In this document: in pieces, positions 56,466 through 57,029 of the stretch | How positions within the stretch are numbered: position 1 is the first letter of the stretch | Layout: each line of letters opens with the position of its first letter | DNA from: Escherichia coli | GTDB taxonomy: Bacteria > Pseudomonadota > Gammaproteobacteria > Enterobacterales > Enterobacteriaceae | Strand: one strand, 5' to 3' | Assembly (NCBI RefSeq): GCF_003018235.1 | Contig: NZ_CP027437.1 | Length of the DNA stretch: 64,000 nucleotides | The notes under the pieces: model-generated | What the model saw: the letters and a program-made list of their open reading frames with translations, nothing else | Told to the model about the DNA's origin: nothing | Databases searched by the model: none | Position numbers and translations under genes: made by a program

Positions 56466-57029
56466 TCACGATTGCATATTTTTAGTGAAGATTAATTTAT
56501 CCTCACCAACATCATAGTAATTGCGTATTATAGCTTCATTGATAAAGCCCTGTTTTGTATAAAATGCGCGGGTGGCACTAAAATCGACATAGCTGGAGGT
56601 CTCTACTAAAAGTAGTCTTGCGCAGGGAAAGGAGAACGCACTAATGACATGAATCGCTCCCCTGCGGCGACTCTTGTCATAAGAATGCCGGAGCGTTTTT
56701 CCATCAATTGCAATAACGTCTTTATCATCTGAAGAATGGCAGTCACGCATCCAGTTAATAAAGCACTCGTGAAATTTTGCAGGACTGATACAGGATACAA
56801 CTCTGGCAATGGTATCGTGAACAGAAATACCATTTTCAAAATCACCATATTGCTTCAAAAAATCGAGATGTGTTTCCCCAAAATCCTCTATATCTTCCCA
56901 GCCTTCTGCACCAGAAACAACGGCACAAATAGTCAACAGTAGAATATCAGACAATTTATATTCCACTTTCCAGGCTTGTCTGTAATCGGGGATAATAGAA
57001 ATATGTTCCATCAATTTTTTAAGTTCCAT
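56466..57029 (-). pseudogene. Truncated H-repeat (ISAs1-family) transposase remnant: N-terminal ~136 aa fused in-frame to ~50 aa of unrelated sequence
   Basis: N-terminus [62 protein letters not shown]...[10 protein letters not shown] matches Rhs-associated H-rpt proteins; full-length proteins are about 378 aa and the tail (..[12 protein letters not shown]..) is unrelated. Confidence 0.75.

Follow-up and report, generated by a model that had tools for sequence, protein, structure and literature searches.

A transposase–acetyltransferase fusion pseudogene left by an ISEc1-associated rearrangement at the yddH border of an Escherichia coli Rhs island

The 187-codon open reading frame (ORF) examined here is a dead fusion, in which the front of an insertion sequence (IS) transposase gene runs into the back of an acetyltransferase gene. 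It lies in a stretch of 64,000 nucleotides of Escherichia coli DNA, all of which was analysed and to which we refer as ‘the window’, and it is a pseudogene scar from an IS-associated rearrangement. Very probably the ORF has no function and arises simply by read-through from an ISEc1 that has lost its interior and abuts the decayed 3′ stump of a gene for a GNAT acetyltransferase, where yddH borders the RhsE/T6SS effector island. An earlier note, made from the letters of the sequence, had described the ORF as a chimera built on a truncated H-repeat (ISAs1) transposase, and Pfam, NCBIfam and a search with the K-12 transposase YdcC all bear this out; the element is ISEc1, of the ISAs1 family. For the comparisons described below, the window was aligned with six E. 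coli genomes by BLAST, and the junction itself with LR-28, 25DN, EC1, R32 and K-12. The narZ region of the window shows 98.8% identity to E. coli. The features of the region are collected in Table 1.

Table 1. Features at and around the fusion, in window coordinates
Feature	Position	Strand	Sequence	Remarks
yddH	55830..56399	+		Flavin reductase family; conserved core gene bordering the variable region; Pfam Flavin_Reduct, E=2.2e-21
Intergenic spacer	56400..56465			66 bp, GNAT-type (non-pptA) haplotype; adjoins the GNAT remnant in 660 genomes
Chimeric ORF	56466..57029	-		187 aa, ATG start; 133 IS + 3 junction + 51 GNAT codons
GNAT 3′ remnant	56466..56621	-		Last 51 codons + native TGA stop
Junction base	56622		G	C in longer GNAT alleles; G also in EC1/PCN033-type genomes (alignments)
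ISEc1 right inverted repeat tip	56623..56631	-	CAGGGAAAG	Outermost 9 bp
ISEc1 left part	56632..57173	-		542 bp: IRL tip, leader, transposase codons 1-133 (CDS nt 1-398)
ISEc1 leader				144 bp; carries AAGGAG ribosome-binding site
ISEc1 IRL tip	57160-57173			Intact
symE-like toxin gene remnant	57174..57233	+		Last 19 codons + stop; cut by the IS left end
G+C-rich hairpin	57239..57272		AAAGCCGGGAAG / CTTCCCGGCTTT	Inverted repeat I1; conserved in L017 and L018
Candidate immunity gene of orphan Rhs toxin module	57275..57559	-		94-aa ORF directly after the toxin tip
Orphan Rhs C-terminal tip	~57572-58081	-		Core-end remnant (…DPIGL…NPLGWIDPLGL) + 119-aa toxin domain
Main Rhs gene	58647-63311	-		215-aa ORF overlaps its end; DcrB-domain ORF upstream
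GNAT / X junction (marker)			AGTAGTCTTGCGTGATTGGGACAGG	
GNAT / full IRR junction (marker)			AGTAGTCTTGCGCAGGGAAAGATTACGAAAGCC	Predicted intermediate

Read directly from the sequence, the 187 codons divide into 133 that derive from the IS, 3 that span the junction and 51 that belong to the GNAT gene. Residues 8–94 constitute the domain DDE_Tnp_1_assoc (PF13808, E=6.3e-32), the only credible match in a Pfam scan of the entire ORF, and residues 29–134 correspond to positions 1–106 of the 314 positions of the NCBIfam model transpos_ISAs1 (E=4.5e-40). When the 64-kb window was searched by tblastn with K-12 YdcC (378 aa, translated from NC_000913.3), residues 1–133 of the query matched 57029..56631 with 95.5% identity, and residues 134–378 matched nothing anywhere in the window. 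No full-length H-repeat (H-rpt) ORF, which would have refuted the earlier note, is hidden there. The DDE catalytic domain (DDE_Tnp_1) gave no match in Pfam, and the ORF falls short of the ~378 aa of a transposase. An initial count of ~136 transposase residues was right about the N-terminal match and needs only a small correction in its extent: codon 133 (TCC) takes its last base from the start of the inverted-repeat tip, and the three codons that follow—TTT CCC TGC, encoding F, P and C—come from that tip plus base 56622.

The IS part of the fusion is the left 542 bp of ISEc1. Thousands of E. coli genomes contain ISEc1 copies to which it is 95–98% identical; the homology begins exactly at 56632, and a five-genome comparison sets its left end at 57173. 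The 9 bp that separate it from the GNAT stump, CAGGGAAAG, match, base for base, the right end of full ISEc1 in R32_14_1F (L006, 6184), 2012C-4502 (L016, 9676) and PCN033 (L019, 5491), and together with 57165-57173 they form a perfect 9-bp inverted repeat (pair I21). The probability of a 9-nt match to an IS terminus falling exactly at the junction by chance is ~4e-6, and for this reason we do not regard the match as accidental. Full ISEc1 is 1,291 bp long (L006 6184-7474; L016 9676-10966). The element here keeps nt 1-542 and nt 1283-1291, 551 bp in all, and nt 543-1282 are gone; since the junction still has 9 bp of the tip of the right inverted repeat (IRR), the loss of 740 bp was from within the IS. 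This gap takes out the whole of the DDE domain, transposase codons 134–378 and the stop codon. The scar is real, then, and it does lie at the edge of the Rhs island, both as originally proposed; it is not the product of a simple end deletion, which the surviving tip contradicts. What remains is not an element of ~1,291 bp bounded by two complete terminal inverted repeats: the left repeat (IRL) is intact, and 9 nt are left of the right one. Nor is there a target-site duplication around the remnant, whose flanks, ...AGTCTTGCG and ATTAAACAG..., are unrelated and come from the GNAT stump and the symE-like stump, respectively. Target-site duplications are likewise absent from all four full ISEc1 copies whose flanks were read at this locus.

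The tail of the ORF had been described as ~50 unrelated residues. The length is correct (51); the residues are not unrelated, and represent the native C-terminus of a GNAT N-acetyltransferase, followed by its own stop codon. The gene is oriented tail-to-tail (convergently) with yddH and is cut after 56621/56622. The fusion stays open for 51 further codons because the tail is read in the native GNAT frame as far as the native TGA. E. coli proteins named ‘GNAT family N-acetyltransferase’ match the tail with 92–98% identity. Pfam finds no match in the 51 residues alone, and they contain no complete GNAT fold that scores above gathering threshold; the origin is therefore demonstrated by way of longer E. 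coli relatives and a reconstructed gene. By this route the source of the 3′ 150 nt, for which the earlier note had suggested a search, is identified as a GNAT acetyltransferase gene. Two comparison sequences, L007 and L015, contain a GNAT reading frame of 155 codons, and the tail aligns to its end. One relative of 80 aa, encoded tail-to-tail with yddH in GCA_964290285, carries the motif-A region (...SHQRQGVRHLL...), and translation of that locus yields a complete 155-codon GNAT frame with one TGA inside it. Once the TGA of the L007 gene is restored to W, as in L015, the reconstructed 155-aa protein rises above the Pfam gathering thresholds for Acetyltransf_7 (34.9 bits; threshold 27), Acetyltransf_1 (28.7 bits; threshold 20.7), Acetyltransf_10 and FR47. 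It also matches rimI models (E=2e-9), although below the equivalog cut-off, and the 51-aa tail matches positions 102–129 of the 132 positions of the rimI model with E=0.017. The acetyl-CoA-binding motif A (Q/R-x-x-G-x-G/A), which reads QRQGVR in L007 and QCQGVG in L015, lies upstream of the GNAT breakpoint in these relatives and is absent from the window. Because all that the ORF has kept is DDE_Tnp_1_assoc and a piece of GNAT that lacks the acetyl-CoA motif, its product can neither transpose DNA nor acetylate.

Every E. coli copy of this GNAT gene that we examined is inactivated, each kind by a different lesion. In 25DN/L007-type genomes a TGA occurs at codon 72; in L015 and 2012C-4502 a TAA at codon 127 shortens the product to 126 aa; EC1/PCN033-type genomes have suffered a 5′ deletion; in R32_14_1F a full ISEc1 is present at the equivalent of window position 56585; and in the window the gene is cut at the junction described here. 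Intact homologues of 154–157 aa, mostly 55–81% identical, occur in Salmonella, Enterobacter, Phytobacter, Kluyvera and Citrobacter. In the Salmonella contig that was inspected, the homologue sits within an integrase/AlpA island.

The fusion is rare, and it is inherited. An identical junction—GNAT, 9 bp, IS nt 542—is found in 2 of 5,426 complete genomes, LR-28 and E7-1N7, neither of which has it a second time elsewhere. A query for the deletion junction was matched over its full length in a single one of the same 5,426 genomes, and there at this very locus. Clustering at 90% identity places the 187-aa product in a group of 17 sequences, which come from different assemblies and for the most part are also 187 aa long. 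A search for contigs that encode exactly this 187-aa protein found none on record. In LR-28 and E7-1N7, the NCBI pipeline PGAP annotates an incomplete ISAs1 transposase pseudogene over the IS part.

Such an ORF might conceivably have been put to use. Truncated or N-terminal-only products repress transposition in other IS families, and a domesticated 187-aa protein, expressed from the IS promoter, would bind ISEc1 inverted repeats and repress or otherwise regulate other copies in trans. E. coli genomes contain ISEc1-homologous places for it to act upon, with a median of 5–6 per genome. Although their nucleotide sequences diverge by 3–5%, the copies in the window, in LR-28 and in most of the 17 cluster members all keep the frame open. 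An AAGGAG ribosome-binding site, native to the IS, is kept 8 nt upstream of the start, and a promoter-like site at 57071-57043 is retained too. And the window differs from LR-28 by 9 nonsynonymous and 4 synonymous changes, a dN/dS of 0.58, which is under 1. The signals of the IS itself may, in consequence, still drive transcription and translation of the ORF, and some activity of its N-terminal domain is possible. Against regulation in trans, however, the E7-1N7 copy has a 1-bp insertion near 56966 and is annotated by PGAP as ‘frameshifted; internal stop’; a 59-aa product that starts inside the fusion is the called gene on 18 contigs; and the allele is confined, among complete genomes, to the two strains just named. 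The promoter scan found 4 promoter-like sites where 3.9 are expected in shuffled sequence, and so no enrichment. The dN/dS value comes from 13 substitutions only and does not differ significantly from 1 or from ~0.2; it is compatible with relaxed constraint over few sites. Variation in the IS part could, moreover, be imported by gene conversion from functional copies, a point to which the last ~25 bp of the IS add weight, being K-12-type in LR-28 and R32-type in the window and in E7-1N7. On these sequence patterns we consider domestication improbable, and we infer instead that the chimera is decaying neutrally.

The three carriers also differ in what adjoins the remnant. In the window, LR-28 and E7-1N7, three different sequences begin exactly at the IS left terminus: a symE-like stump followed by an orphan Rhs module in the window, and an IS1 fragment and an IS3 fragment in the LR-28/E7-1N7 carriers. 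Taken with the mixed types of IS end, these flanks indicate recombination or rearrangement at or within the IS remnant.

On its other side, the fusion is bordered by yddH, a gene annotated under that name in every genome compared. Only three complete genomes match the window allele of yddH with 98.6% identity; for 5,236 records the identity is 90–95%. Homology with K-12, which is of the pptA type, stops at 56407, 8 bp beyond the yddH stop codon (56399). The 222-bp segment that extends from 56400 to 56621 is without similarity to K-12, yet is common to other E. coli, adjoining yddH in 660 of the 5,426 complete genomes. pptA sequence is found in 4,653 of the 5,426, and 4,084 of these hold at least 80% of the gene. 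In the window, PptA finds nothing better than a tblastn match of E=6.8, no pptA-like coding sequence of ~77 aa is present, and the pptA nucleotide sequence gives chance matches only (blastn). The earlier observation that pptA is missing was accurate; the accompanying idea, that it was lost in the same remodelling that made the chimera, was not. pptA and GNAT are alternative haplotypes at the same yddH border, and the absence of pptA is therefore no part of the event that made the chimera but a separate, older polymorphism.

This distinction bears on the literal sense of the earlier note, according to which pptA and the 3′ two-thirds of ydcC would have gone in one simple deletion from a K-12-like ancestor (ydcC-pptA-yddH). 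The remaining genes do follow the K-12 order—yddE, nhoA, yddH, then H-rpt and Rhs—and pptA is indeed gone. But what follows yddH, from 8 bp beyond its stop codon, is the GNAT haplotype of the 660 genomes rather than anything found in K-12, which speaks against an origin of the pptA type. The 9-bp IS right-end tip at the junction could not arise by such a deletion. And in the closest yddH-GNAT haplotype, that of 2012C-4502 (98.5% identity), the GNAT gene is nearly complete and pptA is absent. A deletion of this kind is very improbable.

The GNAT-type genomes point to a different ancestry. In 2012C-4502 the order is yddH, near-complete GNAT, a 419-bp segment that we call ‘X’, full ISEc1 and Rhs, and in 39 genomes, PCN033 included, it is yddH, GNAT stump, X and full ISEc1. 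The window corresponds to the PCN033-type arrangement minus X, which is missing exactly to the IS terminus, and minus 740 internal bp of the IS. We suggest that the right terminus of the IS was brought against the GNAT stump by a terminus-precise event, and that the interior of the IS was lost by a second deletion. The first of these events might have been an IS-mediated adjacent deletion in a PCN033-like precursor (yddH, GNAT stump, 419-bp X, full ISEc1), which we propose because terminus-precise loss of neighbouring DNA is the product of such deletions. It might also have been a second insertion followed by IS–IS recombination, with the same end result. Alternatively, one complex deletion of ~1.16 kb, with a 9-nt filler identical to the inverted-repeat tip, could have sufficed. 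The two-step route predicts an intermediate in which a full ISEc1 abuts 56622, but a search of the 5,426 complete genomes yielded only two-piece matches, in the arrangement GNAT stump, X, ISEc1. The GNAT breakpoint of the window lies within 0–3 bp of the EC1/PCN033-type breakpoint, which looks independent, and both have a non-ancestral G at 56622; we estimate the chance of such a coincidence at ~1%. We also considered whether the EC1-type deletion had originated at a pseudo-end of the IS, and rejected this, the L015 sequence at the deleted side of X being unlike any ISEc1 terminus.

The perfect 9-bp inverted repeat that bounds the 551-bp piece, identical to the IS tips, might be taken to mean that the piece is a MITE-like, non-autonomous derivative of ISEc1 that transposed as such into the GNAT gene. 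Mobile derivatives of this sort are recognized by their multiple copies; the deletion junction, in contrast, was found at no second locus among the 5,426 genomes. The piece has no target-site duplication, its flanks are two different truncated genes, and its right inverted repeat is down to 9 nt, and we accord this origin very little credence. An artefact of sequencing or assembly, such as a collapsed repeat or a mis-join of ISEc1 copies, is conceivable for a multi-copy element and yet scarcely credible here, since the same junction recurs in LR-28 and E7-1N7, complete genomes that were sequenced independently, and on many draft or metagenome contigs, and the carriers differ by 3–5%, as those of a real inherited allele would; a sequencing error, which the earlier note had allowed for, does not lie behind it.

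Beyond the IS left end, the window enters the Rhs island. Positions 57174-57233 align to the 3′ ends of SymE-family genes in comparison sequences L017 and L018 (...VKQVVKGM...), and the reference protein from L017 belongs to the family by Pfam (SymE_toxin, E=1.6e-20). In other strains, SymE-family genes have an orphan Rhs module on one side and an ISEc1 copy on the other. With many genomes in which ISEc1 is adjacent to symE, homology seemed to continue for 8 bp beyond the left end of the IS; this was discounted as BLAST over-extension, only 6 of the 8 bases matching. The G+C-rich hairpin that follows the remnant is likely a bidirectional terminator between the symE-like gene and the orphan immunity gene, and an Rfam scan of 55600-58800 returned nothing meaningful. 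The orphan module itself comprises the Rhs core-end motif (PxxxxDPxGL), a variable tip and a small ORF downstream, the combination by which orphan toxin/immunity modules are recognized. Translation reveals stop codons upstream of the tip, and at the nucleotide level the tip matches partial RHS core fragments in L006. The 94-aa ORF has no Pfam match, and the pair formed by it and the toxin tip is present also in the Rhs array of strain 06-00048, with 95.2% identity.

This is an ordinary feature: an IS-remnant fusion pseudogene at the variable edge of an Rhs island, where defective H-rpt copies are already known; such copies, terminal in Rhs elements and behind orphan C-terminal tips, are reportedly a long-recognized part of E. 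coli Rhs loci. The allele is already annotated as a pseudogene by RefSeq in two strains. What is added here is the identity of the tail, the surviving inverted-repeat tip, and the pptA/GNAT dimorphism. The correct label for the ORF is ‘pseudogene, ISEc1 transposase N-terminal fragment fused to GNAT stump’, and without such a label it would pass as a hypothetical protein or as a novel fusion. The border of the RhsE/T6SS effector island at yddH consists of either pptA or a decaying GNAT gene, both eroded on the island side by ISEc1-associated rearrangements. It is a small, concrete case of H-repeat elements shaping the borders of islands, one that fits existing beliefs about Rhs loci, and its significance beyond annotation is small.

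The closest known counterpart of the remnant is ISEc1/H-rpt itself, the ISAs1-family element represented in K-12 by ydcC and by the defective yncI at RhsE. The two share the same IRL and IRR tip, and both lie distally in an Rhs element, behind orphan toxin/immunity tips; they differ in that the remnant is without 740 internal bp, has 9 nt of the IRR, and runs, as an ORF, into the stump of a foreign gene. H-rpt has been described in the C-terminal tip regions of Rhs elements, its transposition has never been observed, and b1455-b1461 form the RhsE variable region of K-12 (PMC3032704). The annotated genes AABJ59_RS11735 of LR-28 and RMO93_RS12845 of E7-1N7 (PGAP, ‘ISAs1 family transposase, incomplete; missing C-terminus’) are the same allele, likewise next to yddH, although their annotations cover the IS part only and pass over the GNAT-derived tail and the inverted-repeat tip. 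Among RimI-like GNAT N-acetyltransferases (Acetyltransf_1 / Acetyltransf_7), the last 51 residues of the ORF align to the C-terminal strands of the fold; one third of the domain is present here, and motif A is missing. With K-12 ydcC-pptA-yddH, finally, the locus has in common the flanking core genes and the general order of Rhs, H-rpt, a small gene and yddH, except that the small gene is a GNAT stump instead of the tautomerase gene pptA.

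The stump of the acetyltransferase (GNAT) gene, which occupies the place of pptA in the window, ends at the same point, to within 0-3 bp, in window-type and EC1/PCN033-type alleles (56621-56622 in the window, 6223 in the compared locus L005 and 5071 in L019, that of PCN033). The partner at this point differs: the tip of the H-repeat element ISEc1 in window-type genomes, and a 419-bp segment, X, in EC1/PCN033-type genomes. The two alleles have in common a non-ancestral G at 56622, and the PCN033 type without X is exactly the window arrangement.

Every E. coli copy of the yddH-linked GNAT gene that was examined is broken, with at least five distinct lesions among them. 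Other enterobacteria have intact homologues, mostly 55-81% identical, and that of Salmonella sits on an integrase/AlpA island. Together these observations suggest that the gene was acquired horizontally long ago and is decaying in E. coli. The alternative haplotype, with pptA, is eroded too, from the island side. K-12 pptA, used as the query against E. coli genomes, found a match in 4,653, only 4,084 of which have at least 80% of the gene; it is incomplete in about 570, and some of these genomes retain just the last 63 bp, which overlap yddH.

Of the 5,388 E. coli records that match the window's yddH, 5,236 do so at 90-95% identity, and only three genomes match it at 98.6%. The narZ-narI region, at a distance of 4 kb, shows 98.8% identity to ordinary E. 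coli, and nhoA up to 99.5%. These comparisons indicate that deep haplotypes persist and recombine at the very border of the island.

Between yddE and nhoA, an IS3-family element, 98.8% identical to one in strain EC1 (named IS1397 by PGAP), interrupts a REP/palindromic unit at its loop, with GTTTAC on either side. In EC1 this palindrome also contains the IS, but reversed and displaced by a few bp, and so the two copies look like independent insertions into one hotspot.

Coordinates of features in the window and in compared loci (L numbers) of other genomes
Feature	Locus	Position	Strand	Remarks
IS3-family element	window	53347-54778		1,432 bp
orfA of this element	window	53389-53919		
orfB of this element	window	54024-54746		
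yddH	window	55830-56399		unusually divergent allele
symE-like type I toxin gene stump	window	57174-57233	+	last 19 codons, cut by IS left end
Orphan Rhs C-terminal tip, then 94-aa candidate immunity ORF	window	57275-58081	-	
Rhs region including main Rhs gene	window	58139-63782	-	
215-aa ORF	window	58139-58786	-	140-bp overlap with 3' end of main Rhs gene
Main Rhs gene	window	58647-63311	-	1,554 aa
DcrB-domain ORF	window	63330-63782	-	upstream of main Rhs gene; E=9e-19
yddH-linked GNAT gene copy	L007	5776-6243		
yddH-linked GNAT gene copy	L015	1329-1793		
GNAT gene copy	L012	4001-4468		

The main Rhs protein ends in a domain of about 117 aa that follows DPLGL, and the orphan Rhs tip comprises the core-end motif NPLGWIDPLGL and a 119-aa toxin domain. 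Neither domain has a Pfam match, and nor does the 215-aa ORF. The orphan tip and its 94-aa companion occur as a pair in one complete E. coli genome only, that of strain 06-00048 (95.2% identity), inside an array of Rhs fragments adjoining ybfD, ybgA and phrB. In other strains (loci L017, L018 and L006), complete SymE-family genes lie between orphan Rhs toxin/immunity modules and copies of ISEc1, which suggests that Rhs tip, symE and H-repeat form a recurrent unit.
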